Below are positions 15,816-49,886 of a stretch of 64,000 nucleotides of DNA, piece after piece. Location of the stretch: assembly GCA_963763325.1 (NCBI GenBank), contig CAVXOL010000022.1:16737-80736 (forward strand), read 5' to 3'. The notes under the pieces are model-generated. The model did no database searches. It saw nothing but the letters and a program-made list of their open reading frames with translations, and was not told the DNA's origin. Within the stretch, counting starts at the first letter, position 1; every line of letters begins with the position of its first letter. A program made the translations under genes and the position numbers. This DNA is from an uncultured Chloroflexia bacterium. Its GTDB lineage: Bacteria > Chloroflexota > Chloroflexia > Thermomicrobiales > CFX8.

Positions 15816-16136
15816 TTACCGCCGCTCGTTGACGAGGGTCAGGGCGTAGCGGTCGATGGCGTCGATGGCGCGCTCGATACCCGGCCCGGATCTCCCCATC
15901 GCGACTTCGTCCATCGCGGCCCGCAGCCCGGTCAGCGTCGGGTCGAGCAGGAACTCACGCTGGGCGCGGGATGGTGCCGACTGCAACGAACGGCGCGCCA
16001 GCCCTTCGTCCTCGCCCTGCCGGCGCAACGCACGGCTCTCCAGCAAGTGGACGAGCACGTAGGTCGTCATCCCGATCCGCACCACTTCAAGAATGCAGAC
16101 GATGACGACGATTCCGATCCAGAGTGTTGTGGACAT
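15816..16136 (-). CDS. Small single-pass membrane protein, unknown function
   Basis: 106-aa ORF with N-terminal TM 'LWIGIVVIVCILEVVRIGM' followed by a soluble helical region. Confidence 0.45.
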   Translation of the reverse strand: MSTTLWIGIVVIVCILEVVRIGMTTYVLVHLLESRALRRQGEDEGLARRSLQSAPSRAQREFLLDPTLTGLRAAMDEVAMGRSGPGIERAIDAIDRYALTLVNERR

Positions 16137-16151
16137 GCGATAACAGGATTC

Positions 16152-16581
16152 CTAATTGACGTGGGCAGGAACTGATACGAGGCGATAGATTCCTTCATCT
16201 TCGGCCTGCAAATCGATCCTTGCTGGCTGGAAATCGCGAGGGCCACGGATCAGCAGCCTCAGGAGCAAGGCCGTGCTGATTATAGATGCCGACGGCCTTG
16301 CGTGTTTCTCGGTTGGCTGGCACGAAGCCGTCTCTATCGATTGAAAACAGCGTATCCGGCTGAACAATCCCGTACCGTCTTCCACTGATCGTTAGCGTTT
16401 CGCCTATTCGAATGGCCTCTCCCGTATTGATCGACCGGACATCGGATGCAACATCAATGCCCGGAAGTATGATCGTATTCTGAGGGCGGGGGCGACTCCG
16501 GGGTGTTATCAGCCGCAGATCGTGACGCCTTGCAGGTGGGCGCAGTGGTGCTCGTGGTTTATTCCCATTGAGTTTGACCAT
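16152..16581 (-). CDS. Hypothetical protein in a low-GC islet, possibly frameshifted near its 3' end
   Basis: ORF from ATG 16581: 'MVKLNGNKPRAPL...GEAIRIGETLTISGRRYGIVQPDTLFSIDRDGFVP'. A second frame ('LLIRGPRDFQPARIDLQAEDEGIYRLVSVPAHVN*') ends at 16152, just upstream of the next gene. I recognise no family. Confidence 0.3.
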
Positions 16582-16669
16582 TCCCTGCCGTTCTCTGCTC
16601 TTCTTGACGACAACGCCACAGCGTGACAGACTAGCCCATGCGCTGGGCAACCGGCGTGACAACCCAGAA

Positions 16670-16875
16670 TCCGGCAGCGGGTACTCGTCTTTGGGCGAGG
16701 TCACAGGGGGAAACCGGTGCGAGACCGGTGCTGTGCCGCAACTGTAACGCGCGTCGTGCGCGGAGCCAGGTCACCTGCCGTTGCCGTTCCGGTTCGCTTC
16801 GAGCACGAGTGAGCTGGGATGGTCAGGAAACCGACCTCCCTCTCTCACCCGCTCGAAGGCGGGTTTTTGTTTTGT
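16670..16875 (+). promoter_or_regulatory. Cobalamin (B12) riboswitch with terminator-type expression platform
   Basis: Core matches the cobalamin riboswitch consensus: 'GGTCACAGGGGGAAACCGGTGCGAGACCGGTGCTGTGCCGCAACTGTAAC'. The B12 box is 'GGAGCCAGGTCACCTGCC'. It is followed by hairpin CCCGC-TCGAAG-GCGGG (16848-16863) plus 'TTTTTGTTTTGT'. Confidence 0.8.
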
Positions 16876-16923
16876 GCCGCCTCGCCCCGGACCAGGGCGC
16901 GGCCGGATCGAGAGGGGGACCCC

Positions 16924-18465
16924 GTGGTCTACCACCGTGGGCGCTCGTTGCCCGTTGCCCTGCTCCTCGTCGTGCTCCTGGCGTTCTCTGCTGGACCAGC
17001 CCTGATCCAACCCGCACAGGCTGCCGTTCCACAACCAGACGCGGCCGACGCTGCACTTGACTGGCTGCGGACCCAGCAGATGTCGGATGGTGGGTTCGCG
17101 GCCTTCAGCGAGGTCAGCGATGCCAGTGTCAGCGCCGATGCCGCGTACGCGTTCGCCGCGGCAGGGGTGCACCCGGACAATGTCGTGTCGGCATCTGATG
17201 CCAGCTTGCTGGGCTACCTGCGCTCGGTCGCTGGCCAGGAAGTGGCAAATCCGGGCCGGGCTGCCAAGCTTGTGCTGGCGTTGCACGTTGCCGGTGACGA
17301 CCCGCGTGATGTGGGCGGCACCGACCTCGTCAGCGCCATTGAGCTTGGCCTGAATGGCGAGACCGGCTGGTATGGCGATTCGTTCTTTGGCCACTTGCTG
17401 GCTCTACTCGCGCTTGCCTCACAGGATGCAGCAATTCCAGACGCGGCTATCGACGCGATCGTGACCGCCCAGACGCCGGAAGGCTCGTGGGGCTTTAACG
17501 GCGACCCAACGGCGGGAACCGGCGACTCGAACACGACGTCGATGGCGATTCAGGCGCTGGTCGCGATTGATGGCGATCCCGCTGCGATTGACGCGGGACT
17601 CGACTACCTGCGCTCATTGCAGAACGCCGAAGACGGCACGATCTCCTACGACTCGCTCTCGGTCGGCGATCCGGGCGGCGACGCCAACTCGACGGCGCTG
17701 GCGATCCAGGCGTTCGTTGCAGCCGGTGAGGACCCGGCGACGCTGGAGCACGGCGACCTGCTGACGGCGTTGCTGACCTTCCAGAACGAGAGCGGCGCGT
17801 TCCAGTTCCAGCCGGCTTTCCCTGACGACTCGCTGCTGGCGACGGCGCAGGCTGTTCCGGCGCTCCTCCTAAAAGCGTTCCCGTATGACCAGCTGCCGGT
17901 GAGAAACCCACTTAGCGACGCAATGGCGCCGGCCGCACCAATCGACGGCTGCATGTACCACGAGATTACGCAACATAACGTCTGTGCGCCGTTCGCGACG
18001 TATTGGGAGGCGAATGGTGGGCTGGCGAACTTCGGCTATCCGCTGACGGAGGAGGTTGAGTACAACGGCCAGGTCGTCCAGTACTTCGAGCGCGCGATCT
18101 TTGAGTTGCATCCCGAGAACGCCGGGACGCCGTACGAGGTGCTGCTGACGCGCGTTGGCTGGGACGCCTACCTGCTGGCCCACAGCGGCGGAATGACTGC
18201 TGCCGACCCGATTGGAGGCGGGTGTCACTACTTCAATGAAACGACTCACAACCTCTGCGGTGGTTTCGCGGCTTTCTGGGAGAACTTCGGTGGGCTGGCT
18301 GTCTTCGGCTACCCGATCAGTGAGGAGATCCAGGAAGATGGGATGACGGTCCAGTACTTCGAGCGAGCGCGCTTCGAGTGGCATTCCGGCGCATGGCCGG
18401 AGCGCTACGACGTGCTACTCGGGCGGCTGGCGGCGGATGCGCTCGACCGTGAACTCAACCAATAG
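16924..18465 (+). CDS. Secreted alpha/alpha-toroid (prenyltransferase/terpene-cyclase-like repeat) protein with two C-terminal ~75-aa repeats
   Basis: SD 'gagaggggga' precedes in-frame GTG 16924. Signal peptide 'RSLPVALLLVVLLAFSAGPALIQPAQA'. Repeated Q-x2-DGG-type motifs: 'QQMSDGGFA', 'QTPEEGSWG'-like 'QTPEGSWG', 'QNAEDGTISY', 'QNESGAFQF'. The ORF-track start 16819 lies inside the riboswitch terminator and is rejected. Confidence 0.75.
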   Translation: MVYHRGRSLPVALLLVVLLAFSAGPALIQPAQAAVPQPDAADAALDWLRTQQMSDGGFAAFSEVSDASVSADAAYAFAAAGVHPDNVVSASDASLLGYLRSVAGQEVANPGRAAKLVLALHVAGDDPRDVGGTDLVSAIELGLNGETGWYGDSFFGHLLALLALASQDAAIPDAAIDAIVTAQTPEGSWGFNGDPTAGTGDSNTTSMAIQALVAIDGDPAAIDAGLDYLRSLQNAEDGTISYDSLSVGDPGGDANSTALAIQAFVAAGEDPATLEHGDLLTALLTFQNESGAFQFQPAFPDDSLLATAQAVPALLLKAFPYDQLPVRNPLSDAMAPAAPIDGCMYHEITQHNVCAPFATYWEANGGLANFGYPLTEEVEYNGQVVQYFERAIFELHPENAGTPYEVLLTRVGWDAYLLAHSGGMTAADPIGGGCHYFNETTHNLCGGFAAFWENFGGLAVFGYPISEEIQEDGMTVQYFERARFEWHSGAWPERYDVLLGRLAADALDRELNQ

Positions 18466-18466
18466 A

Positions 18467-19438
18467 ATGCCAGGAGCGCGGCGGTTCATCGTCGCGCTCC
18501 TCATTCTCTCGGCGATCGCGCTGGCCGGCATCCTGCCGGTGGCGGCCCAGCGTCCGAATGGGGCCGGGCTTGTCGTTCGTTTCGGCGACGGGTCGCTGAT
18601 CTACGCCTACGTCCAGTTCGAGGAAGAGACGATCACCAGCGAAGAACTGCTCTACCGCTCAGGGCTGGCGGTGGCGATCGCGCCGTACAGTGGTCTTGGG
18701 GCAGGCGTCTGTATGATCAACGGCGAGGGTTGCCCGTCCGACGACTGCTTCTGCCAGTCGTACACGACACCGGCCTACTTCTGGCACTTCTACGCTCACG
18801 ATAGCGGCTGGCGCGAACTGCTCCAGGGCGCGTCGAGCCGCAGTGTCGGTGACGGCGACATCGACGGCTGGTCGTGGACGGCTGGCGAGTCCGGCTTGCC
18901 CGCCGTCACGATCGACGAGATCGCGCTGATGAACGGTGTCGATCGCAACCCCCCCGAAATCCCTCCGACTGAGACGCCGACGCCGGAGCCGACCAGCACC
19001 CCGACGATCAGCCCAACCAACACGCCACTCCCCACGCCGACGCAGCCACCACCCACCAGCACGCCGGAGCGCATCTCGACAGCAATTGCCGAGCCGTCCG
19101 TGACCGTCACTCAATCCGCGTCAACGACATCCGGAACAACGCCGACATCTGGGATTGGGCAGGTTGCTGCGACCACATCGTCAACGCGCGAGTCGAGCCC
19201 AACCGCGACCGTCGCACGGACATCAACGCCGATTGCACCATCTCCGACGCTGACGCTGATTGCCAGCGCGACAACGGTCGCCGTCCTCGTCCAGCCTGAT
19301 GGGACGACGGTTCCGGTCGAGGTTGTTCAGGCAGACGACGGCACGTCATCGACGAACCTGATGCTCTTTAGCGGGCTTGTGGTCGTCGCGGCCGGGGCGG
19401 GTGCGTTTGTCTGGGTACGGGGGAGGCGGGCGGCGTGA
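18467..19438 (+). CDS. DUF4430 (transcobalamin-like C-terminal domain) protein with Pro/Thr-rich linker and C-terminal TM anchor
   Basis: ATG 18467 lies 1 nt after the upstream stop. Signal peptide 'FIVALLILSAIALAGILPVAAQ'. DUF4430-like pattern 'YFWHFYAHDSGWRELLQGASSRSVGDGDIDGWSW'. PT-rich 'PPTETPTPEPTSTPTISPTNTPLPTPTQPPPTSTP'. TM 'LMLFSGLVVVAAGAGAFVWV'. Confidence 0.7.
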   Translation: MPGARRFIVALLILSAIALAGILPVAAQRPNGAGLVVRFGDGSLIYAYVQFEEETITSEELLYRSGLAVAIAPYSGLGAGVCMINGEGCPSDDCFCQSYTTPAYFWHFYAHDSGWRELLQGASSRSVGDGDIDGWSWTAGESGLPAVTIDEIALMNGVDRNPPEIPPTETPTPEPTSTPTISPTNTPLPTPTQPPPTSTPERISTAIAEPSVTVTQSASTTSGTTPTSGIGQVAATTSSTRESSPTATVARTSTPIAPSPTLTLIASATTVAVLVQPDGTTVPVEVVQADDGTSSTNLMLFSGLVVVAAGAGAFVWVRGRRAA

Positions 19439-20439
19439 TCAACCCTCTCGCCTGGCTGCTCTGGTTCGTCGGCGTCACCAGCGTGCCAGTCGTCAGCCGG
19501 AATCCGTTCTACCTGGTGCTTGATTTGCTGGTCGTGCTGGTCGTCTACCTCTCGCTGCCGCGCGCGAGCGGGGCAGCCCGCGCCTGGCGGCTCTTCGCGC
19601 TGGTTGGATCGACTCTGGCGCTGTTGTCGGTCGGGTTCAACGTTCTGACCGTCCATGTTGGTGACAAGGTCTTCGCGACCCTGCCGGATTCGTTGCCGAT
19701 CGTTGGCGGAAACCTGACGTGGAATGCGTTCGTTTACGGGATGCTTTCTGCGCTGGCGATCGCGACGTTGCTGATCGCGGCGGCGACGTTCAATACGGCT
19801 GTCCGGCAGGGCGATATCATCCGACTCGTGCCGGGTAGCTTCGCGGGGCTGGGGATCGCCGGCAGCATCGCGATGACGATGGTGCCGCAGACGATCGCGG
19901 CTGGACGCGACATCTACGATGCGCAGCGCTCGCGCGGACATCGGTTTCGGGGGTTGCGCGATGCGCGGAGCCTGATCGTCCCGCTACTGGGGAGCGGGCT
20001 GGAGCGGGCGGTGACACTCTCGGAGGCGCTGGAGGCGCGGGGTTTCGGGGCCAGTGTTGCGGTTGCCGAGCCCTCCGGCACCCGACGGTTGCCGCTTCTG
20101 GCCGCCGTCTGCCTGCTGACGTTGTCGCTGCTGGCGATTGCGAGCGGTCGGTTGGCAGTCGGGCTGGCACTGATGGCGGGAGCAGTCGCCTGTGTCCTAC
20201 GGGCGACTCCATCTCGTAACCGGCGCACGCGCTTTCGACCGCTCGACTGGAACATGGCCTCGCTGACGGTGGCAGGGGCTGGCGTCGCGGTCGCGCTCGT
20301 CTTCGTGGGTCTGCTGACGCTGACCGGCACGACCATCTCGTATGATCCGTTCCCGCGCCTCACAATGCCCCCGTTCGAGCCGTTGGCGGGCGCGACGATA
20401 CTGTTGCTGCTGGCGCCGATCTTCTGGACCCAGCCATGA
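19435..20439 (+). CDS. ecfT: ECF transporter transmembrane (T) component, CbiQ/EcfT family, with extra C-terminal TM segments
   Basis: GTGA overlap with the upstream gene. Multi-TM, with the conserved coupling helices 'DIYDAQRSRGHRF' and 'RAVTLSEALEARGFG'. Confidence 0.8.
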   Translation: MINPLAWLLWFVGVTSVPVVSRNPFYLVLDLLVVLVVYLSLPRASGAARAWRLFALVGSTLALLSVGFNVLTVHVGDKVFATLPDSLPIVGGNLTWNAFVYGMLSALAIATLLIAAATFNTAVRQGDIIRLVPGSFAGLGIAGSIAMTMVPQTIAAGRDIYDAQRSRGHRFRGLRDARSLIVPLLGSGLERAVTLSEALEARGFGASVAVAEPSGTRRLPLLAAVCLLTLSLLAIASGRLAVGLALMAGAVACVLRATPSRNRRTRFRPLDWNMASLTVAGAGVAVALVFVGLLTLTGTTISYDPFPRLTMPPFEPLAGATILLLLAPIFWTQP

Positions 20440-22106
20440 CCGCCGTCGTCGCCGATCGGTTGTCGTATCGCTTCCCGAAGGCGACGGTTGATGCGCTGCG
20501 CGAGGTGTCGTGGGCCGTCGAGGACGGATCGGTGACGCTCGTGACCGGACCGTCGGGTTCCGGCAAGACGACGCTGTTGCGCTGCCTGAACGGGCTGATC
20601 CCGCACTTTCACGGGGGGATGTTCGGCGGCGATGTCTCGGTCCTCGGCGTCAACACGCGCGCGGCCGGGCCGCGTGATCTGGCGCGTGAGGTCGGGATGG
20701 TCTTCCAGGACCCGGAGGCGCAGTTCGTCACCGACCGGGTTGAGGACGAAATCGTCTTCGGGATGGAGAACCTCGGCTACGACCGCCGGACGATGCGAGT
20801 CCGGCTCGAAGAGACGCTCGATCTGCTCGGCATCAACCATCTGCGGCAGCGTGAGGTCGCAACCCTCTCCGGCGGTGAGCGGCAGCGGGTGGCGATCGCT
20901 GCCGCATTGGCGACCCGCCCTGCTGTGCTTGTCCTCGACGAACCGACCTCGCAGCTCGACCCGCTGGCGGCCCACGATGTTCTGGCCGCCGCACAGCGTC
21001 TCAACAGCGACCTGGGGATGACGATCGTTATCAGCGAGCACCGGCTCGACCGCGTCCTGCCCTTCGCCGACCGGCTGGTCGCGATTGACTCGGGTTCGTT
21101 CTATGAGGGTCCCGTTCAGGATGTCCTGTCACTGATGGACGATGTGCCGCCGCTGGTTGAGCTGGCGCGGGTTCTTGGCTGGGAGCCGGTTCCATTGACG
21201 GTGCGGGAGGCACGGCGCAAACCCCTCCCCAACCGCCACCCAGAGGGTACCCGGCCTGCGAAGGGAGGGGCTTTAGATTCCGTGCGGCGAAAAGCCCCTC
21301 CCTTCGCAGGCCGGGTACCCTCTGGGTGGCGGTTGGGGAGGGGCTTCTCGAACGCGCCCGGAAACGCCCTCCTCACCTTTGACGCCGTCACCTTCCGCTA
21401 CGACCGCACCACCGCGCTACGCGACATCACGCTCACCGGTCATGCCGGCGAAGTCATCGCATTGATCGGCCGCAACGGCTCCGGAAAGACGACGTTGCTC
21501 AAGCATGTCAACGGTTTGCTGCGCCCGAGTGGCGGGCGAGTGTTGCATGAGGGAATCAATATCGCACGGACGCCCGTCCACGAGGCGGCGCGGACTGCCG
21601 GGTACGTGCCGCAGCATCCGACCTCGATTCTCCATCAGGAGACGGTGCGCGATGAGTTGCGCTTCACGCTCCGGGCGCAAGGGAAAGAGATCACGCCGGG
21701 GCCGTTGCTGGAGCAACTCGGCCTGCTGCATCGGATAGACCGGCACCCGCTGGACCTGAGTGGCGGCGAGCGCCAGAGGTTGGCCCTGGCAGCGATCGCG
21801 ATTGGTGAACCGCATATCCTGCTGCTCGACGAGCCGACACGCGGTCTGCCCGGTAATGATAAGCGGACGCTGGCCACGTTCGTGCGCGAGTACGCTGCTA
21901 AGGGCCGGCTCGTCGTCGTCGCCACCCACGATGTTGAGTTCGTCGCCAACGCTGCCGACCGCGTCATCATGCTCGCCGAGGGGGAGATCGTTGCCGACGG
22001 GACTCCCGCCGAGGTCCTGGCCGGCTCGCTTACCTTCGGTACCCAGATGAACCGGCTGTTTGGTGGCGACGTGCTGACGGTCGAGGATGCGATAGTGAGG
22101 AGATAG
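20436..22106 (+). CDS. ecfA: Fused duplicated ECF/CbiO-type ABC ATPase (EcfA1-EcfA2)
   Basis: Two ABC cassettes. First: Walker A 'GPSGSGKTTLL', signature 'LSGGERQRVAIA', 'VLVLDEPTSQLD'. Second: 'GRNGSGKTTLL', 'LSGGERQRLALA', 'ILLLDEPTRGL'. ATGA overlap with ecfT. The inter-domain linker contains the palindromic insert. Confidence 0.9.
   Translation: MTAVVADRLSYRFPKATVDALREVSWAVEDGSVTLVTGPSGSGKTTLLRCLNGLIPHFHGGMFGGDVSVLGVNTRAAGPRDLAREVGMVFQDPEAQFVTDRVEDEIVFGMENLGYDRRTMRVRLEETLDLLGINHLRQREVATLSGGERQRVAIAAALATRPAVLVLDEPTSQLDPLAAHDVLAAAQRLNSDLGMTIVISEHRLDRVLPFADRLVAIDSGSFYEGPVQDVLSLMDDVPPLVELARVLGWEPVPLTVREARRKPLPNRHPEGTRPAKGGALDSVRRKAPPFAGRVPSGWRLGRGFSNAPGNALLTFDAVTFRYDRTTALRDITLTGHAGEVIALIGRNGSGKTTLLKHVNGLLRPSGGRVLHEGINIARTPVHEAARTAGYVPQHPTSILHQETVRDELRFTLRAQGKEITPGPLLEQLGLLHRIDRHPLDLSGGERQRLALAAIAIGEPHILLLDEPTRGLPGNDKRTLATFVREYAAKGRLVVVATHDVEFVANAADRVIMLAEGEIVADGTPAEVLAGSLTFGTQMNRLFGGDVLTVEDAIVRR
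21222..21343. repeat. Perfect 50-bp inverted repeat (22-nt spacer) of the C4TC4/G4AG4 nested-palindrome family, read in frame inside ecfA
   Basis: Checked base by base. Left arm 21222-21271 is 'cccctccccaaccgccacccagagggtacccggcctgcgaagggaggggc' and equals the reverse complement of right arm 21294-21343. It encodes 'KPLPNRHPEGTRPAKGGALDSVRRKAPPFAGRVPSGWRLGRG'. Confidence 0.9.
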
Positions 22107-22183
22107 TGCTGAGTGCTAAGGCGAGAGGAGTGGTTGACGCGATCGGTCACTAACTCCTTTCGCCTTAGCACTCAGCATTTTTC
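22107..22183 (+). terminator. Intrinsic terminator of the B12/ECF operon (25-bp stem, T-run)
   Basis: Stem 22107-22131 'tgctgagtgctaaggcgagaggagt' pairs with 22153-22177 with one G-U pair. It is followed by 'tttttc' and starts 1 nt after the ecfA stop. Confidence 0.75.
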
Positions 22184-22341
22184 TCGTTCCGTCACTGACG
22201 GGACTGGCATTGGATTGGTAAGATTATCAGCCATGCCCGTTGACCGGCACGGTACGTTCCATCATCCCGATCCCGTGTCGAGCAGGCAAGATCATAATCT
22301 GATCTGCAACGGCTCCGCGTATTTCACTTGAGGACAATTGC

Positions 22342-24906
22342 ATGCCCCGACGCTCCAAGACGGCACCTGAGAACAGTGACGCGCTAACCGATGCCGAGGA
22401 CCTGGGCGATGCCTATGTCGCCGCGCCGGAGCGGGTCAAGCCGGACGACGAATCGACCTACCTGACGCTGCCGACGCTGATCCTGCCGCAGACGTTGTTG
22501 CTGCCGCGGATGTCGCTGCCCTACCCGCTCGATGACGAGGAAGAGACCCAGGCAGTTGATGACGCCATTAAGCACGATCGGCTGATCCTTGTTCTGGCCG
22601 CCAGGGACCAGGACGAAGATGACGATGACCTCGATGACGACGAGGAGGATGAGGACGCCGACAGCGTTTCTCTCGATGAGTCGCGTGCCGGTGTCGTGAC
22701 GAGCTACGGGTCACTGGTCGCCGATGACGAGCTCTGCACGGTTGGCGTGATCGCTGAGGTTGGCCACAAGATTACACGGCCCGGTGGGCCGGCCCATGTC
22801 ATCCTCCAGGGTGTCGCCCGTGGTGTTGTCAAGGAGATCGAGCAGCGCCGGCCGTTCACGCTGGCGAAGGTCAAGCGGATCGATGACGCGAACGTTGAGA
22901 CGCTTGAGGCGAAGGCGGTCATGTCGCACGTCCTTGAGCAGGTCGAGTCGTACATCGCGATGCTGCCGAACGTGCCGGAAGAAGTCGTCACGATGGTGCG
23001 CAGCGTCGATGAGCCGGGCTGGCTGGCCGACCTGATCGCCTTCTCGCCCGAGTTCGAGTCGGCCAAGAGGCAGGAGGCCCTGGAGAGCTCGATCCGGTCG
23101 AGCGGTTGCGCCACATCTCCGTCATCCTCCAGGAGCGGCTGGAGTATCTGACGCTGCGGCACCAGATCCAGTCGGAGGCACAAGCCGGGCTGGACCGCCA
23201 GCAGCGTGAATACCTGCTGCGTGAGCAGATGCGCACGATCCAGCGCGAGCTGGGCGATGTGGCCGCGCGAAGAGGCGCTCGTCCAGGAGTTCCGCGACAA
23301 AATCGAAGCGGCCGGGATGCCGGATGAGGTCAAGACCAAGGCGCTCCTCCAGGTCTCACCGGCTGGAGCACCAGCACCCGTTCTCCCCGGAGATCGGCGT
23401 GATCCGTTCCTACCTGGAATGGCTGACCGAGCTGCCGTGGTCGATCGAGACTGAGGATAAGCTCGATCTCGAGGAGGCTGCGAGGATCCTTGATGAGGAC
23501 CACTACGGTCTGCCGAGAAGGTCAAGGAGCGTATCCTCGAGTTCATCGCTGTCCGCAAGCTTGCCGGCAATCGGATGAAGGCGCCGATCATCTGCTTCGT
23601 CGGCCCGCCCGGCGTCGGCAAGACCAGCCTGGGCCGCTCGATTGCCCGTGCGCTGGGCCGCTCCTACGTGCGAATGTCGCTCGGTGGTGTCCGCGACGAA
23701 GCCGAGATGCGTGGCCATCGGCGCACCTACGTCGGCGCGATGCCGGGCCGCGTCATCAAGGCGCTGCGAGACGCGAAGACGCAGAACCCGGTCATGGTGC
23801 TGGACGAAGTCGACAAGGTCGGCTCGGATGCGTTCCGTGGCGACCCATCATCGGCGCTGCTGGAAGTGCTCGACCCCGAGCAGAACCATTCGTTCTCTGA
23901 CCACTACCTGGAGGTTCCGTTCGACCTGTCACAGGTGATCTTCATCACGACCGCTAACCTGCTCGACCCGATCCCGGCGCCGCTGCGAGACCGGATGGAG
24001 ATCATCGAGGTTTCCGGCTACACCGAGGTCGAGAAGCTGGAGATCGCCCGCAAGTTCCTGTTGCCGAAGGCGCTCTACTCGCACGGCCTGGAAGAATCGC
24101 AACTGATCATGCCGGACGAGGCGCTGCTGCGGCTGATCCGTGAGTACACGCACGAGTCGGGCGTGCGCAATCTCGATCGAGAGGTTGGCGCGCTCTGCCG
24201 CAAGGTGGCGCGACGGGTGGCCGAGGACGCCGGAGCGCGAGAGCTGGCTGGTCGATGCGCGAGGATCTGCCGTCGTTCCTGGGTATCCCGCGCTTCGAGT
24301 TCGGGCTGGCCGAGGAGAACGACGAAATCGGCGTCGCGACTGGCGCCGCCGTCACGAGTGCTGGGGGCGACCTGCTCTCGGTCGAAGACGACGGTGATGG
24401 CCGGGAAGTCGGAACTGACGCTGACGGGCCAGCTCGGTGATGTCATGCAGGAGTCGGCGCGGGCCGCGATCTCCTACGCGCGCTCACGCTCGCAGGAGCT
24501 TGGCATCCCGGTCGGCTTCTTTGACAGCCACACGATCCACATCCATGTTCCGGCCGGTGCGATCCCGAAGGATGGCCCCTCGGCCGGCGTGACGCTGGCG
24601 ACCTCGCTCATCTCGGCCGTGACCGGCAACAAGGTCCGCAAGGATGTCGCGATGACGGGCGAGGTGACATTGCGTGGCAAGGTGCTACCGATCGGAGGCA
24701 CCCGCGAGAAGGCGCTGGCTGCCCACCGCGGCGGGATCACGACCTTCATCATCCCGAAGCGCAACGAGAAGGACCTCGACGACCTGCCCGCCACCGTCCG
24801 CGATGAGCTCGATATCCACCTCGTCTCGCACATGGACGAGGTGCTGGCGATCGCGTTCGTGGCTGCTCCACGCGCCGTCAAGGAGCTGGCCGCCGTCGGC
24901 GACTGA
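22342..24906 (+). pseudogene. lon: ATP-dependent Lon protease, multiply frameshifted as assembled
   Basis: N-domain 'LPTLILPQTLLLPRMSLPYPL'. Coiled region '[39 protein letters not shown]'. '[19 protein letters not shown]'. Walker A 'FVGPPGVGKTSLGRSIA'. 'HRRTYVGAMPGRVI'. Protease 'LTGQLGDVMQESARAA' and 'PKDGPSAGVTLATSLISA'. At least 6 frame changes, including a compensating pair at about 24240 and 24395. Confidence 0.9.
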
Positions 24907-25031
24907 GTCGACAGCCGTCAGCCGTCAGTGATCAGCCTGTTGGTCGAATGCCAGTATTCTCTCCACGGGTCAGGCGCTCAGCCTCCTGAGCCTGGCTGAT
25001 TACTGGTGACTGACGGCTGACGGCTGTCGAC
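24907..25031. repeat. Long inverted repeat/hairpin directly after the lon stop (23-bp perfect outer stem plus extension)
   Basis: Checked: 24907-24929 'gtcgacagccgtcagccgtcagt' is the reverse complement of 25009-25031. An extra pairing 'atcagcc/ggctgat' extends it. The arms contain tandem 'cagccgt'. Confidence 0.8.
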
Positions 25032-25098
25032 TCCTTGCTATACTCCGATGGCCGGACATACCCGCCGGGCCGTAACCACAGCCATCCAGGAGGACACC

Positions 25099-25428
25099 AT
25101 GAAGCTGATCTTCGCGATCGTTCAGGACGAGGACGCCGACAACCTGACCGATGCGCTCGTCAGTGAGGGGTTTCGGATCACCCGGATCGGCAGCACCGGC
25201 TCGTTCCTGCGGATGGGCAACAGCAGCATCATGGTTGGCGTCGAGGAAAGTCAGGTGCCACAGGTCATCTCGATCATCCGCCGCGTCTGCCGCCGCCGCA
25301 AGCAGATGGCGGTCCCCTACTCACCGGCGCTCGAGCCGGGGCTCCTCTACATGCCCGAGAACTTCGAGGTCGAAGTCGGCGGCGCCGTCATCTTCACCCA
25401 CAACGTCGTCCGCTTCGAGCGGCTCTGA
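25099..25428 (+). CDS. darA: Cyclic-di-AMP receptor, PII-like DarA/PstA (YaaQ, DUF970)
   Basis: SD 'caggagga' before ATG 25099. 'MKLIFAIVQDEDADNLTDALVSEGFRITRIGSTGSFLRMGNSSIMVGVEE...EVEVGGAVIF' is colinear with B. subtilis YaaQ/DarA as I recall it. Confidence 0.85.
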   Translation: MKLIFAIVQDEDADNLTDALVSEGFRITRIGSTGSFLRMGNSSIMVGVEESQVPQVISIIRRVCRRRKQMAVPYSPALEPGLLYMPENFEVEVGGAVIFTHNVVRFERL

Positions 25429-25445
25429 TACTAGAGGGATGCGGA

Positions 25446-25775
25446 TTACTCCGACGCTTCGCCGCGTGACGAGGTCTCAACCTGATCGTGGGCTGCGACG
25501 ACAAGCCGCATTACTTCGATCATGGATTCCTTCACCATGTAGTACATACCCGGGCCATTCTGGACGAACGATCCGCCTTCATCCAGATTCTCCTCTACTC
25601 CGACGATTTCTCCGAGTGGGACCTCAAACGGCTCACCTGTGGAGAGACCTGTAAACGTAACGTTCAATGTGCAGCCTCCGATGTTGCTCGACTGAGTACC
25701 GAATACGCGCGAGTTGTACTTGATAACAGACTGGTCCATCGAATCAGGTCCATCAATATAGCGTGAGACGCCCAC
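25446..25775 (-). CDS. Hypothetical small protein in a low-GC islet
   Basis: 109-aa ORF in a visibly lower-GC intergenic islet between darA and the M20 gene. No recognisable motif. A possible start is the internal 'MDQSVIKY'. Confidence 0.3.
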   Translation of the reverse strand: MGVSRYIDGPDSMDQSVIKYNSRVFGTQSSNIGGCTLNVTFTGLSTGEPFEVPLGEIVGVEENLDEGGSFVQNGPGMYYMVKESMIEVMRLVVAAHDQVETSSRGEASE

Positions 25776-25837
25776 TTCTGAGATACGAGGATCTTCCCGA
25801 ATCGTTCCTGTCCGGTACCCTCTAGCGGATCTTCAAT

Positions 25838-27061
25838 TTGGGCGATCGGATTCATTGGGACGGAAGATGGAAACAGGTGGATCATGTCGCAAGTGTCCCG
25901 CAGGTCGACCGGGAGCGGTTGATCGAAATTGTCACGGAACTGGTTGGTATTCCGAGTGTCTCGGGCGATGAGCTGGCTATCATGCAGCATGTCGCCGGGT
26001 TCTTCGAAGGCGCCGGTGTCAAGCATATTGTCACAGCGAAGGATCCACAGCGGCCGAACGTCGTCGCGTCGATCGGCAACGGCAACGGGCCGGTGATCGC
26101 GATGAACGGGCATCTGGATACGGTTCCGGTCTCCGACATCGACCGCTGGAAGACTGACCCGTTCAAGGGCGTCCTGAGCGAGGACGGCAAGCGCATCTTC
26201 GGGCGCGGGTCGTCCGACATGAAGGGCGCTGTCGGCGTCATGCTGTACGTCATGACGGCGCTGAAGGACGTGCCACTGAATGGCACGCTTCAGGTCCACG
26301 TCGTCTCCGACGAGGAGCGTGGGGCCGATTACGGGACGAAGCACCTGCTGGCCGAGATTGAGGCCGGGAATCTGCCGAGGCCGGACTATGTCCTGATCGG
26401 CGAGGGAAGCCAGCTCAAGGTTCGCAACGCCGAGCGGGGCATCTTCGGCTTCCGGGTGCGCTTCATCGGGCGGGCGTCGCACACGGCGGCCGCGCGAGTA
26501 TCCGGCATCAACGCGATCATGCTGGCCGCGAAGGGCATTCTCGCGTTGGAAGGCGACATCGACCGCGAGCACCCGGCCATCGGCAAGCCGGTCATCTCGG
26601 TCAACAAGATCGAGGGCGGGATCGTCTCCAACATCGTGCCGGGTGAGTGCATCATCACCGTTGACCGGCGGACGATCCCCGGCGAGACGCGCGAGAGCGT
26701 CCTGGCCGAGGTGCGCGAGAAGCTGGACGCCGTCAAGGCGGAGGACCCGAACTTCAACTACGAGATCCTTGCCTCCGACGAGGAGGAGGGCTACACGCCG
26801 GCCAACATCACCGACGAGTCGTCACCAATCGTCCGTGCCTTGCAGGATAGCGTCGAGACGGTACTGGGCCGCGAGCCGGAGTTCTTCAAGACCTGGGCCG
26901 GCGCGACCGATGGTCGGCTCTACCGCTTTGCCGGGATCGACACGGTCGGTTTCGGCCCGAGCGGCGAGGCCGCCCACGGCGCGAACGAGGCCGTCTACGT
27001 CGACGACCTCGTGACGCAGGCGCAGGTCTACATCGCGACCGTCCGCAACCTGCTGGCGTAA
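25838..27061 (+). CDS. M20 family metallopeptidase (ArgE/DapE/ACY1-type deacylase)
   Basis: 'VTELVGIPSVSGDE', 'AMNGHLDTVPV', 'GRGSSDMKGAVGVML', 'HVVSDEERG'. The likely true start is the in-frame GTG at about 25877. Confidence 0.8.
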   Translation: MGDRIHWDGRWKQVDHVASVPQVDRERLIEIVTELVGIPSVSGDELAIMQHVAGFFEGAGVKHIVTAKDPQRPNVVASIGNGNGPVIAMNGHLDTVPVSDIDRWKTDPFKGVLSEDGKRIFGRGSSDMKGAVGVMLYVMTALKDVPLNGTLQVHVVSDEERGADYGTKHLLAEIEAGNLPRPDYVLIGEGSQLKVRNAERGIFGFRVRFIGRASHTAAARVSGINAIMLAAKGILALEGDIDREHPAIGKPVISVNKIEGGIVSNIVPGECIITVDRRTIPGETRESVLAEVREKLDAVKAEDPNFNYEILASDEEEGYTPANITDESSPIVRALQDSVETVLGREPEFFKTWAGATDGRLYRFAGIDTVGFGPSGEAAHGANEAVYVDDLVTQAQVYIATVRNLLA

Positions 27062-27064
27062 GCC

Positions 27065-27996
27065 GCTCGCATTGCCCGAACGCCTGGCATCAGTCCGCTG
27101 ATCCAGCTGGCCGTCGTCGTCAGCGCGTCCGCCAAGCGCGGCGACGACGCCGTCCAGCCCGCGGCTCTGGTCGCGGTTCTCCGGGGACTCCTTGCCGATC
27201 GGGGTGTCGGCGACGAAGCGGTAGAGGTCGGCGGCGCCCTGCAGGATGAGCGGGGTCAGGCCGACATCGGCGAAGGTCGTCGCGATCTCCTCCATCTCGC
27301 CGACCCAGCGGTAGGCTTTCGGCGGCATCGTCGGGACGGATCGCTCCAGCCAGGCGAGGACATCGGGGACGCTGTGCTGCTGCTCGGCGCGAGCGCCTCT
27401 TCGAGTCCGAGGGCGCGGGCCGCCACCAGCAACTCGACGCCGAGCGCCTGAAGTCCCTTGGTCAGCGCGCCGTAGCACATCTTCAGGCCGGACGCCTGGC
27501 CCATCTCGTCGCCGATGACGCGCACGTCCAGGCCGTAGTGCGGCCAACGCTGCCGCCTCGTCTGCGCCGGGGCCGGAGGCATAGAAGCGTGTGCCGGGCC
27601 GGCGCGGTGGCGCGCCGATGATGCCGATGTCGGCCACCCGTCCGCCTGCCGCAGCTGACAACCTCGCCGACCTCTCGTACCGTGCGCGGCGCGATCGCGT
27701 TGCAGTCGACGTAGAACAGATCGGCCCCGGTTGCGCGCAGCGCGTCCGCCACCTTCGTGGCCGTCTCCAGCGCGACGGCCGGGACCAGGACCGAGAGGAA
27801 CACGTCCGCCGCCTCGACCAGTTCTTCAAGGCTTGGCACATCCTCGATACCCGCCTCGGCAGCCAGCGCCCGCGAGCGCTCGCTGCGTCCGGTCAGGCAG
27901 GTGAGCACGCGCAGGCCGTTGTTGTGCAGCACCGCGCCAATCGAGTGTCCCATGTCGCCAGGGCTGAGCAGGCCGATTGTGGTAATGGACATGGGT
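27065..27996 (-). pseudogene. NAD(P)-binding 6-phosphogluconate-dehydrogenase-like oxidoreductase (DUF1932-type C-terminus), frameshifted; 3' end uncertain
   Basis: N-terminus 'MSITTIGLLSPGDMGHSIGAVL' is a Rossmann GxGxxG-like motif. Continuation pieces lie in other minus frames: 'AAGGRVADIGIIGAPP', 'GLKMCYGALTKGLQALGVELLVAARALGLEEAL', 'AYRWVGEMEEIATTFADVGLTPLILQGAADLY'. At least 3 frame changes. Confidence 0.65.
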
Positions 27997-28094
27997 GATC
28001 CTTTCATGATGTCTGAACTGAGTCCGTTGCGCTTCGCAATCATGACACGCTTCCGCCTGGTACGATGCAGCACTCGCTTCAGGAGGTAATGTCG

Positions 28095-28505
28095 ATGCCG
28101 GCTCCTCGTTGGTTAGCGCGCTCGAACCGCTATGTCCTGAATCCGATCCTCGGACGGCTCGCACGGCACCTGCCCGGCTTCGGCGTCGTCATTCACACCG
28201 GCCGGAAGTCGGGCCGGACCTATCGAACGCCGGTCAACATCTTCACTCGCGACGGCGGCTATGTCGTCGCGCTGACCTACGGGCGCGAGTCGGAGTGGGT
28301 GCGGAACGTTCTCGCCAGCAGAGGTTGTCGGCTGGAGACGCGTGGACGCTCGCTGCAACTAATCGAGCCGCGACTCGTCCACGACGAAGACCGTCGCGCT
28401 GTTCCGGCTCCAGTTGGGTTCGTCCTTGGTCTGTTGCGGGTGAAGGATTTCCTTGAACTCAATCGGGAAGACAATTCTGCAGGTTCGTCGTCACCATCCG
28501 CGTAG
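28095..28505 (+). CDS. Deazaflavin (F420)-dependent nitroreductase-family oxidoreductase (DUF385)
   Basis: SD 'aggagg' upstream. 'NRYVLNPILGRLARHLPGFGVVIHTGRKSGRTYRTPVNIFTRDGGYVVALTYGRESEWVRNV' is typical of the family. Confidence 0.75.
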   Translation: MPAPRWLARSNRYVLNPILGRLARHLPGFGVVIHTGRKSGRTYRTPVNIFTRDGGYVVALTYGRESEWVRNVLASRGCRLETRGRSLQLIEPRLVHDEDRRAVPAPVGFVLGLLRVKDFLELNREDNSAGSSSPSA

Positions 28506-28563
28506 GGACAAGTCTCAGACATGTCCGCGCCGTGAGGCGGCCACGCGGATGGTGACGACGAAC
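28483..28563. repeat. Composite hairpin: degenerate REP-like palindrome (28501-28532) nested in an outer 20-bp inverted repeat
   Basis: 'cgtagggacaagtctcagacatgtccgcgccg' resembles the REP family found at 54.4-56.0 kb. The outer arms are 'gttcgtcgtcaccatccgcg' (28483-28502) and 'cgcggatggtgacgacgaac' (28544-28563). Confidence 0.6.
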
Positions 28564-28665
28564 CATTGGGGTTGCGGAACGCGGTAGGATAATCACTGTT
28601 ACGCCAGACAACCGACGTACCACGTCAGATCGCGACCGTACGCACGGTTTCTGGGCATCCAGCAA

Positions 28666-28694
28666 TTGACCGGGACGGGCAAAAGGGGTAGAAT
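28666..28694 (+). promoter_or_regulatory. Sigma70-type promoter candidate for recA (TTGACC-17 nt-TAGAAT)
   Basis: TTGACC at 28666-28671, a 17-nt spacer, then TAGAAT at 28689-28694, about 70 nt upstream of the recA start. Confidence 0.55.
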
Positions 28695-28706
28695 ACGACA
28701 AGGATT

Positions 28707-28722
28707 TAGAACATCCATTCTA
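28707..28722 (+). promoter_or_regulatory. SOS-box-like site (GAAC-N4-ATTC; one mismatch to the Gram-positive type GAAC-N4-GTTC)
   Basis: 'TAGAACATCCATTCTA' lies immediately downstream of the -10 element of the recA promoter candidate. Confidence 0.45.
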
Positions 28723-28762
28723 CTTTTCGGTGCGACCGTTCCGCCAGATGAGAGGTACCGCA

Positions 28763-29830
28763 GTGAGCGAACGCGACAAGGCTATCGAGGTCGCTCTGGC
28801 GACGATCGAGCGTCAGTTCGGCAAGGGCTCGATCATGAAGATGAGCGAGTCGACCCGGCTGCCAATCGAGGGGATCCCGACCGGCTCGATCGCGCTGGAC
28901 ATGGCGCTCGGCATCGGCGGTGTCCCGCGCGGCCGGATCATCGAGATCTATGGCCCGGAGTCGTCCGGTAAGACGACGCTGGCCCAGCACATCATCGCCG
29001 AGGCGCAGAAGATGGGCGGCGTGGCCGCCTACATCGATGCCGAGCACGCGCTCGACCCGCTCTACGCCGAGCGGTGCGGCGTCAACCTCGACAACCTGCT
29101 CATCTCGCAGCCGGACACCGGCGAGCAGGCGCTGGAGATCACCGAGACGCTGGTCCGCTCCGGCGCGATCGACATCATCGTGGTCGACTCGGTCGCCGCG
29201 CTCGTGCCGCGCGCCGAGATCGAAGGCGACATGGGCGACTCGCACGTCGGCCTCCAGGCGCGACTGATGAGCCAGGCGCTGCGCAAGCTGACCGGCGCGA
29301 TCTCCCGCTCGCGGACCTCGGTCATCTTCATCAACCAGCTCCGGATGAAGATCGGCGTCATGTTCGGCAGCCCGGAGACGACGACCGGCGGCCAGGCGCT
29401 CAAGTTCTACTCCTCGGTGCGGATGGACATCCGCCGGATCGAGACGATCAAGCAGGGCACCGACTCGATCGGCAGCCGCGTCCGCGTCAAGGTCGTCAAG
29501 AACAAGGTCGCGCCGCCGTTCCGCCAGGCCGAGTTCGACATCATGTACAACGAGGGCATCTCGAAGGCCGGCAGCGTCCTCGATGTCGGCGTCGAGCTGG
29601 GCATCGTCCGCAAGAGCGGCGCCTGGTTCTACCTCGAAGAGGACCGGCTCGGCCAGGGGCGTGAGAACGCCAAGGAGTTCCTCAACAACAACCCCGACAT
29701 CCTGAACACGATCGAGTACCGCATCCGCGCGACCTCGCCGGAGTTCGCCGGCCACGACGCGCCGCAGGACGAGGTGCTGGCGATGGCCGGCGCCACCAAC
29801 GGCCTGATCGAGGACGACGAGATCGTCTAA
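28763..29830 (+). CDS. recA: Recombinase RecA
   Basis: '[24 protein letters not shown]', Walker A '[11 protein letters not shown]', '[11 protein letters not shown]', '[22 protein letters not shown]', '[22 protein letters not shown]'. Start taken at GTG 28763 after SD 'gagagg'. ATG 28748 or GTG 28730 are alternatives. Confidence 0.95.
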
Positions 29831-29851
29831 CCGGTTACGACACGAAGACGT

Positions 29852-29888
29852 ACGACGGGCGCTCAATCGGGTGCCCGTTGTCGTTTTC
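29852..29888 (+). terminator. Intrinsic terminator candidate downstream of recA
   Basis: Stem 'acgacgggc' (29852-29860) pairs with 'gcccgttgt' (29873-29881) with one G-T pair. It is followed by 'cgttttct'. Confidence 0.55.
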
Positions 29889-29935
29889 TGTCATCAATGT
29901 GGTGGCTGCCTCGTCGAGATGCGAGCAGTCGAAAA

Positions 29936-29998
29936 CCCCTCCCCAACCGCTCCCCTGCGAAGGGAAGGGCTTTTCGCAGGGGAGCGGTTGGGGAGGGG
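29936..29998. repeat. C4TC4/G4AG4 nested-palindrome family copy (26-bp perfect arms, 11-nt spacer)
   Basis: Checked: 'cccctccccaaccgctcccctgcgaa' (29936-29961) is the reverse complement of 29973-29998. Confidence 0.85.
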
Positions 29999-30002
29999 TT
30001 TC

Positions 30003-30765
30003 TTACACCTCGATCGTTTCGCCATCTCCTGGAACGAGCACTCGCTCGCTCAAACCCAGCATCTGCGACAGCCTGCGACAGCATCTCGCGCGTTAGCAGG
30101 CAGTGGTTGATCGTGTCCATGTGGACGGCGATGATCTTCGCGTTCGGGGCTGCTTCGGCGACGCGGATGACCTCGTCGGCTGTCATCGTGATCGGGTCAC
30201 CCTTCAGGAACTGGGCCGCGCCAGCGTTAAGGACGATCACGTCAGGCGTGTGCGCGTTCAGGGCTGCTTCGACCTCCGGACACCAGACGGTGTCACCCGC
30301 AATATAGAGGGTCGGCTCGCTGGACGCGCGGAAGACGAAGCCGGAGACGTGGCCCATCAGCGCACCGATCTCGCCGGTGCCGTGCTGGCCACCGGTGCGG
30401 GTGACCTCGAAGCCATGCCAGCGTTCTCTCTCGTCAATTGTGATCAGGTTGCTGTAGCCCTCGGCGGTGAGCTTGTCGACGTCCGGCGGCTGGCAGACCA
30501 TCGGTGTCTCGTGCGGGATCAACTCACCCGCGCGGGCGTCCCAGTGGTCGCGGTGTGTGTGCGTCACGAAGACGCCATCGACGCTGGCGATGAGCTGCTG
30601 GAGCTCGTCGTCATCGATCGGCAGGGGCAGCATCGGGATGCGATGGGTGTTGGCTGCGTTACCGATCGGGTCCAGGGACTCCTTCTCGGCCAACATCGGG
30701 ATCGACCAGGATACTGATGTCGCCCCAGTCAACGACGATCGTCGCATGGCGCAGCAATCGAATCT
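30003..30765 (-). pseudogene. MBL-fold metallo-hydrolase, frameshifted near both ends as assembled
   Basis: Core 'VFVTHTHRDHWD' is the HxHxDH-type motif. The N-terminus 'VKIRLLRHATIVVDWGDISILVDP' is in another frame (shift near 30700). The natural C-terminus 'VLVPGDGETIEV*' (stop 30003-30005) is reached only after a shift near 30040; otherwise the ORF reads through into the palindromic repeat. Confidence 0.7.
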
Positions 30766-30784
30766 TCACGAACGTCCTGTTCTG

Positions 30785-32626: not shown

Positions 32627-32664
32627 ACGAGGAGACGGACGTGCCGCATCTGGTAGGGGCCACA

Positions 32665-32799: not shown

Positions 32800-32844
32800 C
32801 ACGGCCACTACGTGGGTGTCGGCCAATATGGTCCGGTGTCTGAC

Positions 32845-48868: not shown

Positions 48869-48873
48869 CCGTT

Positions 48874-49869: not shown

Positions 49870-49886
49870 TGCGACACATCAAATGT

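Follow-up and report, generated by a model that had tools for sequence, protein, structure and literature searches.

How does a long palindrome come to lie inside a protein-coding gene without breaking its reading frame, and why do its arms still match almost perfectly? The question is raised by a 64-kb stretch of DNA from an uncultured Chloroflexia bacterium (contig CAVXOL010000022.1; the whole stretch is called the window here), in which a 128-nt palindromic element occupies positions 21219-21346 of the plus strand, within ecfA, the gene for a fused energy-coupling factor (ECF) ATPase. We consider it probable that the element is a passenger repeat in a permissive linker of this protein, kept perfect by renewal or homogenization at the DNA level. 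The gene and the parts of the element are as follows.

20436-22106, plus strand: host gene, encoding a fused EcfA1-EcfA2 ATPase of 556 residues with two ABC_tran domains (E = 1.6e-60), assigned from Pfam, homologs and AlphaFold.
21219-21346, plus strand: palindromic element, coding for residues 262-303 (KPLPNRHPEGTRPAKGGALDSVRRKAPPFAGRVPSGWRLGRG), defined by repeat search, in-frame translation, RNA fold and AlphaFold.
21219-21274, plus strand: C-rich left arm, composed of an outer layer AAACCCCTCCCCAAC, a middle layer CGCCACCCAGAGGGTACCCGGCC (21234-21256) and an inner layer TGCGAAGGGAGGGGCTTT.
21275-21290, plus strand: loop of 16 nt with the asymmetric family motif GTGCGGC at 21282-21288, which sets the orientation of the element.
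21291-21346, plus strand: G-rich right arm, the exact complement of the left arm except at 21344.

An inverted-repeat search delimits two 56-nt arms (21219-21274 and 21291-21346) that are 98% complementary and lie 16 nt apart. The sole mismatch, between 21221 and 21344, leaves perfect arms of 53 nt (21222-21274 and 21291-21343), and the palindrome is the longest among the inverted repeats of the window. An earlier note on this DNA had described 50-nt arms around a 22-nt spacer at 21222-21343; these are real and form a subset of the arms and loop given here. The hairpin, which the note had proposed to fold, is predicted to be very stable: for positions 21205-21360 the minimum free energy as RNA is -141.2 kcal/mol, compared with -73.2 ± 4.4 for 200 dinucleotide shuffles (z = -15.6), none of which equalled it. 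Folded as DNA, the same segment reaches -84.3 kcal/mol, against -35.2 ± 3.2 for shuffles (z = -15.3). The outer layer, inner layer and loop are those of a canonical member of the repeat family described below. The middle layer differs; its 23 nt, CGCCACCCAGAGGGTACCCGGCC, are present in both arms (21234-21256 on the plus strand and 21309-21331 on the minus strand) and have no further occurrence in the window or in 132 collected loci. On the mRNA strand, the right arm carries the G-runs GGG..GGG..GGGG.GGGG.

The ecfA reading frame traverses the element with neither a stop codon nor a change of frame. The peptide quoted in the earlier note is exact, and the position it gave, in frame in the linker between the two ATP-binding cassettes (ABC), is confirmed. 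Two ABC_tran domains in one chain beside a gene for EcfT (CbiQ) identify the host protein as a fused EcfA-EcfA'. Its homologs carry the JGI name 'energy-coupling factor transport system ATP-binding protein', and the named matches belong to Thermomicrobiales, Chloroflexota. An AlphaFold model based on a 25-sequence alignment (mean predicted local distance difference test score, pLDDT, 86; predicted template modelling score 0.78) has two confident ABC domains, and the only run of at least three residues with pLDDT below 50, residues 268-305, coincides with the insert. Orthologs at 73% identity or less have a tether of 17-20 residues here, not conserved (for example RRLLPTSRRDIPSRTRRPIGDRLL), and no insert. 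The ortholog alignment proposed in the note therefore finds the linker without the insert in these proteins, and the result that it named as refuting, the same peptide as a conserved linker in unrelated lineages, did not appear: the distant orthologs have short, unrelated linkers.

Because it is disordered in the model, short and non-conserved in the outgroups, and occupied by unrelated inserts elsewhere, this inter-domain linker appears to be a generally permissive site and a recurrent sink for repeat insertions. The inserts elsewhere measure 25-60 residues and occupy the same linker in other Chloroflexota EcfA proteins (P0016, P0019, P0056, P0068 and P0117). P0016 and P0019 carry the motifs …HPEPQRRIS… and …GSVAALRMT…, and the set also includes …GPTFCHPEPQRRISPRS…, …RAEHYEVLSGLSTGRSVH… and …HNFSIHNSPFSIQ…. 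Judged by motif recognition in the proteins only, they look like translations of other, unrelated repeat families.

The closest relatives present a different picture. All four of the closest orthologs (76-84% identity) are filled at this linker, which is a new observation, and the three compared as DNA hold palindromes of differing form and internal sequence. We compared the insert DNA for three of them (loci L001-L003) and took the fourth, protein P0004 (76% identity), from its peptide only.

Window: junction after EARR; 128-nt three-layer copy.
L002 (protein P0005), 84% identity: junction after EARRMVGDVRASD; 95-nt canonical copy with the loop oriented as in the window.
L001 (protein P0002), 81% identity: junction after EAR; 97-nt canonical copy with the loop inverted and the inner stems decaying.
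L003 (protein P0003), 80% identity: junction after EARTHVAGLARGGE; 50-nt palindrome only, of the 48874 subfamily type.

The L001 copy folds at -72.6 kcal/mol with internal mismatches. The inserts of the window, L001, L002 and L003 are all read in the frame AAA-CCC-CTC-CCC. An explanation of the shared frame 0 as the only open one was considered and rejected at family level, since 7-8 of 10 copies are open in that frame and 5-6 of 10 in the others. The centre of the L003 palindrome, CGCCACCCAAAGGG (RHPKG), matches the start of the window middle layer, CGCCACCCAGAGGG (RHPEG), in the same frame, and the 14-mer CGCCACCCA(G/A)AGGG is common to both. The P0004 peptide resembles the window element weakly, in frame 0 at the 5' end and in frame 2 at the 3' end (PGALWVAG vs PGTLWVAVG). 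Since junctions, orientation, subfamily and apparently frame differ between orthologs, the insert peptide is, by this sequence comparison, not conserved, though the DNA is related.

Three outgroup loci (L130-L132, about 43 kb) keep the ecfT-ecfA-lon synteny, have an empty linker and lack a canonical family copy. Other C/G-run palindromes (e.g. CCCCCCGGCCCCTTCCCCGTGGGGAGAAGGG…) stand at one syntenic intergenic position in two of them (L130, 2067-2140; L131, 2001-2176), which suggests related but diverged repeat families across the order Thermomicrobiales. The earlier note had pictured a recent insertion or active homogenization, and that alternative holds up. The insert, however, is not private to this genome, and more has happened at the site, over a longer time, than a single recent hit would explain.

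What kind of repeat is it? The family is recognized by its termini, AAACCCCTCCCCAACC…GGTTGGGGAGGGGTTT, and by the loop motif GTGCGGC. Both AAACCCCTCCCCAACC, the 16-nt terminus, and its complement are found again at 29933-30001 (without mismatch at either end) and at 49774-49870 (1 mismatch each), and GCCCCTCCC occurs 5 times in the window against 0.99 expected. The window holds four copies, the one in ecfA and three intergenic ones.

29933-30001, no strand assigned: short-form copy with one inner hairpin deleted, having the variants AACCGC and TGCGAAGGGAGGGCTTT in common with the ecfA copy; between the convergent genes for recA (28730-29830) and a metallo-beta-lactamase (MBL)-fold protein.
49774-49870, no strand assigned: copy whose loop points the other way and which has GTGTGTCGC/GCGACACA as an additional outer stem; flanked by a deacetylase gene and hisH.
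48874-48976, no strand assigned: looser relative from a related subfamily (AAACCCCGACCGCCCAGCCCCC...GGGGGCTGGGGGGTGGGGTT) with CCCCGACCGCCCAGCCCCC-type arms; fills the hisH-hisA spacer.

The earlier note had already pointed to palindromes at 29936-29998, 49775-49869 and 48874-48976. The first two are real relatives by their common 16-nt terminus (0-1 mismatches); the third exists, though only as a member of the related subfamily. The gene contexts it gave, the end of the MBL gene and the start of hisA, hold with refinements from annotation.

A scan of metagenomes for the full-length pattern, both termini plus GTGCGGC, returned six loci, of which L126-L129 plainly belong to the same family; the L129 loop, AGATTTCGTGCGGCCAAAAG, is 2 nt different from that of the window. 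All six copies are intergenic. Long open frames across the elements at L127, L129 and L125 were rejected as in-frame cases, the element lying upstream of the true start in L129 and L125 and the L127 frame being Arg-rich antisense noise. In this census, which draws on 64 kb and scattered loci, an intragenic position is the exception (one of the four window copies, none of the six from metagenomes). The in-frame insertion to which the earlier note drew attention is borne out for ecfA; judged by these copies, the family does not usually insert in this way.

The copies share a layered consensus of an outer stem AAACCCCTCCCCAAC, a middle layer CCCTCCCC, an inner stem TGCGA(A/G)G(G)AGGGGCTTT and an asymmetric loop with GTGCGGC; some have a further outer stem, GTGTCGC/GCGACAC. 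The loop motif is invariant in four copies not chosen by it (the ecfA and 49774 copies of the window, L001 and L002) as well as in the six selected by the pattern. At the sequence level only, the G-rich arm of canonical copies, GGGGAGGGGTTGGGGAGGGG, is a textbook G-quadruplex motif with four runs (each 3 G or more, loops of 1-7 nt); it is present in L001, L002, L126-L129 and at 49848-49867 of the window. In the ecfA copy the G-runs are separated by 8-nt loops only. An Rfam scan of the window and nine loci found no family covering the element, and a literature search on the motifs and on Thermomicrobia repeats found no description of the family, the RIME and Sm-repeat papers offering no sequence for comparison. 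The earlier note's impression that no equivalent had been described is therefore borne out in Rfam and the searchable literature. At the protein level, a HMMER search with the 42-residue insert matched only four large, multi-repeat, low-complexity proteins, so the long variant is not evidenced in other proteins; a profile search with frame-0 peptides gave 23 candidates and missed P0001, P0002 and P0005, as uninformative a result as its short low-complexity query would give.

The arms, considered as a module, reach further. A 596-Gb genome collection was scanned with the 15-mer AACCCCTCCCCAACC, for which about 1000 chance matches are expected, and gave at least 120 matches, which do not amount to a taxonomic census. 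Among the matches listed, 12 loci hold complete paired elements that have the outer and middle layers of the family (C4TC4AAC4TC4-ACAA-G5AG4CT … G4AG4TTG4AG4, with a variable interior of 60-150 nt), in Rhizobium, Sinorhizobium, Allorhizobium, a betaproteobacterial metagenome-assembled genome (MAG), a Gemmataceae MAG and others. By blastn, arm-length matches (39-47 nt, 84-95%) fall in plasmids of Calothrix, Allocoleopsis, Rhizobium, Sinorhizobium, Pararhizobium, Sphingomonas, Azospirillum and Deinococcus. Nine of ten such matches lie outside annotated genes, and the tenth is in cobN of Sphingomonas parapaucimobilis (L143; plasmid NZ_CP155756.1, cobN at 82824-86204), where a nested palindrome at about 85550-85715 ends in GGGGAGGGGTTGGGGAGGGG. 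Aligned with the solved CobN structure 9uk9 (query 185-246 against chain 185-200), the CobN protein, annotated as intact, is longer by about 46 residues in an inter-domain gap, and is on this alignment likely a second in-frame case, in another phylum. TGCGGC is found in 7 of 15 elements not chosen by that motif, against about 1.5 expected, an excess that is suggestive only. The arms in different phyla may be either homologous elements or convergent low-complexity hairpins.

The near-perfect arms of the ecfA copy call for an explanation of their own. In the ecfA codons on either side of the linker, four-fold-degenerate sites are 69% identical between the window and L002 and 52-58% identical in other pairs. 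A passively inherited insert would therefore be expected to retain arm complementarity of about 69% at best (0.52-0.69), and the chance that 55 or more of the 56 positions would pair is about 2e-8. With flanking sites so diverged, the arms are not a passive relic. The earlier note had proposed recent insertion or active homogenization, and these figures give that proposal a quantitative footing. Across 10 family copies, 12 of 35 stem pairs vary on both sides yet remain paired. Genome-specific variants (AACCGC and TGCGAAGGGAGGGGCTTT) tie the ecfA copy to the 29933 copy of the window, not to the orthologous copy in L002. Repeated replacement or re-insertion from the current genomic pool, mutual correction of the arms, or selection on the hairpin could each maintain such a palindrome; the private 23-nt layer, symmetric in both arms, would favour some arm-against-arm templating.

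[quoted passage not shown] The copy would occupy only the tolerant part of EcfA, the unstructured tether between nucleotide-binding domains 1 and 2. It would have survived there through the stop-free AAA-CCC-CTC-CCC frame, which gives a disordered Pro/Gly/Arg-rich peptide and takes the tether from about 17-20 residues to about 50; this peptide would not itself be selected but carried as a passenger, presumably neutral for the transporter. The palindrome would be kept near-perfect by very recent re-insertion or replacement from other copies in the genome, or alternatively by correction of one arm against the other through hairpin-templated repair or gene conversion.

Several points weigh against this proposal. 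Translation of the insert is presumed from the intact frame in four independent assemblies. Direct repeats longer than 2 nt are absent from the element ends in 11 copies, so there is no target-site duplication of the MITE kind; five of the 11 have reverse-complementary flanks of 4-8 nt, partly the shared extra outer stem GTGTCGC/GCGACAC. The window shows no cognate transposase, and an empty/filled polymorphism was not found, so mobility is deduced from dispersal only. The P0001-P0005 clade is filled throughout and the outgroups are all empty, so the hairpin could be selected there. A 56-bp GC-rich RNA duplex in an mRNA should be costly, as an obstacle to ribosome unwinding and a substrate for RNase III, which sits uneasily with strict neutrality. 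Finally, frameshifts elsewhere in the assembly make homopolymer lengths inside the element uncertain.

The main rival holds that the hairpin is a selected cis-acting structure, such as an RNase III or other processing site, a translational pause between domains or an attenuator acting when translation is uncoupled, maintained by compensatory evolution since the clade ancestor. We regard this as unlikely. It would account for the insert in five of five members of the closest clade, with palindromic DNA in four (window, L001, L002 and L003; peptide only for P0004), and for complementarity far beyond the neutral expectation, with covarying stem pairs and a stability of -141 kcal/mol; the 14-mer held in the same frame by the window and L003 hints at common ancestry. 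However, the same family is equally perfect at ordinary intergenic sites, the L001 copy is decaying (-72.6 kcal/mol), and L003 retains no more than a 50-nt palindrome. Position, orientation and subfamily vary among the orthologs, outgroup orthologs work without an insert, and the unrelated inserts in the same linker of other lineages are as expected of a permissive site. The stem also lacks a U-tract (GGGGCTTCTCG), and the operon likely has a terminator of its own at 22107-22185.

Within the passenger explanation itself there is the further question of whether one ancestral insertion was followed by turnover or whether different family members inserted independently into a hotspot with target preference. 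Junctions 0-14 codons apart, the inverted loop of L001 and the other subfamily of L003 are what independent insertions would leave, and each copy is nearer its own family consensus than the orthologous copy. We nevertheless find repeated insertion distinctly unlikely: with five of five clade members filled and no outgroup, a single ancestral event is most parsimonious, the same-frame 14-mer links the window to L003, the P0004 peptide resembles the window middle layer (weakly), and inversion of a loop between inverted arms is a known secondary event.

A more elaborate reading would join several of these strands. The palindrome would symmetrize itself and nest layer by layer, spreading or being renewed without a transposase through hairpin- or cruciform-templated synthesis; the arm module (C4TC4AAC4TC4…G4AG4TTG4AG4 with TGCGGC) would be homologous across Chloroflexota, Alphaproteobacteria, Cyanobacteria, Deinococcota and Planctomycetota; and the ecfA hairpin would be kept for a function, e.g. 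RNase III- or pause-dependent control between the ATPase halves. As a whole, we judge this combination improbable.

It is also conceivable, if highly improbable, that a native low-complexity linker became palindromic through local inverted duplication and was never mobile DNA. The 23-nt middle layer, unique in the window and the 132 loci, would fit such an origin, as would the failure of the HMMER search with the 42-residue peptide to find another protein family; yet the outer 16 nt, the inner stem and the loop match a dispersed family, and orthologs outside the clade have no trace of the sequence. An assembly artefact, in which a chimeric or fold-back read made the palindrome, might be suspected from the apparent frameshifts in the window (Lon, hisH, MBL-fold gene and a transposase gene) and a strange poly-G tract, but can be discounted almost entirely, given an intact flanking frame, palindromes at the same place in JGI 3300047676, NCBI GCA_035629995.1 and JGI 3300063042, and further family copies in the window and in unrelated metagenomes.

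Assembly quality bears on single bases more than on the element as a whole. The lon gene (22342-24906) is a single open reading frame (ORF) of 844-851 residues in L130 and L131 and is spread over at least three frames in the window. In hisH (48985-49658), the Pfam GATase segments 1-93 and 111-187 are in different frames, and the longest ORF of hisA (48156-48875) starts at Pfam profile position 46, its N-terminal part missing. The MBL-fold gene (29863-30747) has a natural-looking C-terminus, …LSERVLVPGDGETIEV*, whose stop codon at 30003-30005 abuts the repeat and is off the frame of the gene body. These apparent frameshifts may be either assembly indel errors or pseudogenes. Because of them, the split transposase gene and the odd G-rich tract, single bases in C/G runs are of uncertain accuracy; the in-frame reading of the element is still backed by three independent assemblies. 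The tract in question, 55150-55800, is about 650 nt of strand-asymmetric, purine-rich sequence (GC skew as high as +0.9, AT skew as high as +0.96; G-runs broken by A and reaching 24 bases) directly upstream of the transposase gene. It could encode a Pro-rich 259-residue minus-strand ORF (55148-55927, no Pfam match) or be a sequencing or assembly artefact.

The host operon spans 16662-22185 and begins with a cobalamin riboswitch at 16662-16795 (Rfam RF00174, 53.5 bits), followed in order by a 548-residue ORF, a 333-residue protein, EcfT, the fused EcfA and a terminator hairpin. The 548-residue ORF (16819-18465) has an ortholog in L002 with faint prenyltransferase/SQHop-cyclase-like matches only, and the Pro/Thr-rich 333-residue protein (18437-19438) has no Pfam match. 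Two further features frame ecfA.

19435-20439, plus strand: EcfT/CbiQ transmembrane component (Pfam), overlapping the ecfA start, in the same operon.
22107-22185, plus strand: hairpin with 32-nt arms (TGCTGAGTGCTAAGG-type, 22107-22177) followed by TTTTTCT, directly 3' of the ecfA stop codon.

The latter is likely the intrinsic terminator of the operon and is distinct from the palindrome within the gene. The operon probably encodes an ECF-type uptake system under B12 regulation; two of its components are uncharacterized, and no S-component is recognizable.

Distinct palindromic repeat families are unusually many in this window, and more long inverted repeats stand at the ends of genes. An GACAGCCGTCAGCCGTCAG-type inverted repeat lies directly 3' of lon (24905-25033), a perfect 22-nt repeat pair upstream of recA (28482-28564) is immediately followed by GTAGGGAC at 28502-28509, and a 41-nt repeat pair tagged with GTAGGGGC stands at 32653-32811. 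The sequence GTAGGGRC occurs 8 times against 2.1 expected, at sites that include 55178, 56028, 32653, 28502, 12357 and 41794. On the minus strand is a gene for a REP-associated tyrosine transposase (RAYT; IS200-like, HUH type), split by a frameshift into an N-terminal half at 54847-55140 (…IMPNHVHGIL…) and a C-terminal half at about 54600-54850 in another frame (…VWQRSFYDHIIRDDRDLERVRGYIEANP…). It was identified by eye from the HUH (HVH) motif and the conserved C-terminal half; Pfam made no call on either half. A perfect 44-nt inverted repeat (54424-54467 and 54549-54592), beginning with GTAGGGAC, adjoins the gene. Together the GTAGGG repeats and the RAYT look like a classical GTAG-REP/RAYT system that coexists with the C4TC4 family and is distinct from it, since the C4TC4 family lacks the GTAGGG tag.

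If the passenger explanation is correct, a free-living, GC-rich, thermophile-related lineage joins the few bacteria with palindromic selfish DNA inside functional genes, for which Rickettsia has been the main example so far. What goes beyond a routine repeat is the turnover among orthologs at one site, a hairpin of extreme perfection and stability, and an arm module that possibly spans phyla and, if homologous, would represent an unrecognized widespread repeat. Across orthologs, a single linker is found empty, filled by a short palindrome, filled by canonical copies of either orientation, or filled by a perfect copy of three layers. The series is a natural experiment in the renewal and symmetrization of a palindrome in place, in the hairpin load of an mRNA and in the tether length tolerated by a fused ABC ATPase. 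It also carries a warning for annotation, as Pro/Gly/Arg-rich 'linkers' and many small hypothetical ORFs in such genomes may be translated repeats.

Among known systems, the element behaves in a MITE/REP-like manner yet fails the defining tests of both classes. With prokaryotic MITEs it shares terminal inverted repeats, small size, lack of coding capacity of its own, multiple copies and the occasional ORF-preserving position in a gene. In-frame fusions of MITEs and of Rickettsia palindromic elements (RPEs) are established, as in intragenic enterobacterial repetitive intergenic consensus sequences, Coxiella QMITE1 and Anabaena MITEs (PMC10969869). Here, in contrast, the whole element is a nested palindrome and not a pair of terminal inverted repeats around unique DNA, with neither a target-site duplication nor a partner insertion sequence found. 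REPs and bacterial interspersed mosaic elements are palindromes with GTAG/CGTC tags mobilized by RAYT transposases (PMC3733652). They resemble this family as GC-rich intergenic hairpins, often at gene ends or in operons, with an asymmetric motif by the hairpin (here GTGCGGC, 3-8 nt from the inner stem). They differ in their GTAG/CGTC end tag and in being imperfect palindromes of 20-40 bp; the present family has termini AAACCCC/GGGGTTT and a length of 69-128 nt (95-128 nt without the short form). Nor does it resemble an intrinsic terminator or a terminator-like repeat of the SPRITE type, in which a GC-rich stem-loop precedes a U-run of at least 5 in 8, since the stem is followed by TTT in canonical copies and by CTTCTC in the ecfA copy. 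A terminator consensus scan of 16000-31000 called neither the ecfA nor the 29933 copy, both of which its loop (3-8 nt) and T-run criteria exclude by design.

Two further systems offer structural parallels. Methanomicrobiaceae have repetitive G-quadruplex motifs with an adjacent C-track (PMC8044849), that is, interspersed G4 runs with a complementary C-track and competition between hairpin and quadruplex, comparable to the G4AG4TTG4AG4 of canonical copies here. Those motifs are archaeal, shorter and unreported inside genes, and in our family the quadruplex is a sequence motif only. Mitochondrial genes of Nematomorpha contain coding palindromes in which both arms encode conserved protein regions under amino-acid selection (PMC6649704). 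They too are long perfect inverted repeats in frame in functional genes, and their perfection implies ongoing homogenization; they differ in being organellar, and the arms described here encode a presumably dispensable, disordered linker. Yeast mitochondria provide another case, the var1 gene, in which mobile palindromic GC clusters lie in frame.

The RPEs bear the closest comparison. Forty-four were first reported in R. conorii, nearly half of them in ORFs (Ogata et al. 2000 Science 290:347; 2002 Genome Res 12:808; summarized in PMC10969869). Like the ecfA element (128 nt with 56-nt arms, and no fewer than 3 other copies in the 64 kb), they are dispersed palindromes of about 100-150 bp that can lie in frame in unrelated genes, where the added surface or loop peptide is tolerated. 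Both orientations of an RPE give a similar peptide, and here the plus and minus strands both yield KPLPNRHPEGTRPAKGGA…. The differences are a Chloroflexota host, an extreme GC content with C4/G4 runs, near-perfect arms and, in the copies counted, an intragenic share of 1 of 4 in the window and 0 of 6 from metagenomes, next to one related Sphingomonas CobN case. A conserved family peptide is also absent here, the ortholog inserts varying in sequence, junction, orientation and apparently frame. Given the Thermomicrobiales host and the opposite, GC-rich composition, homology to RPEs is very unlikely, and the comparison drawn in the earlier note is a fair functional analogy, not membership. We assign the element to no named family; it is a known phenomenon in an apparently undescribed repeat family and a new phylum, and the Rickettsia palindromic element would be, by analogy, the system closest to it in function.

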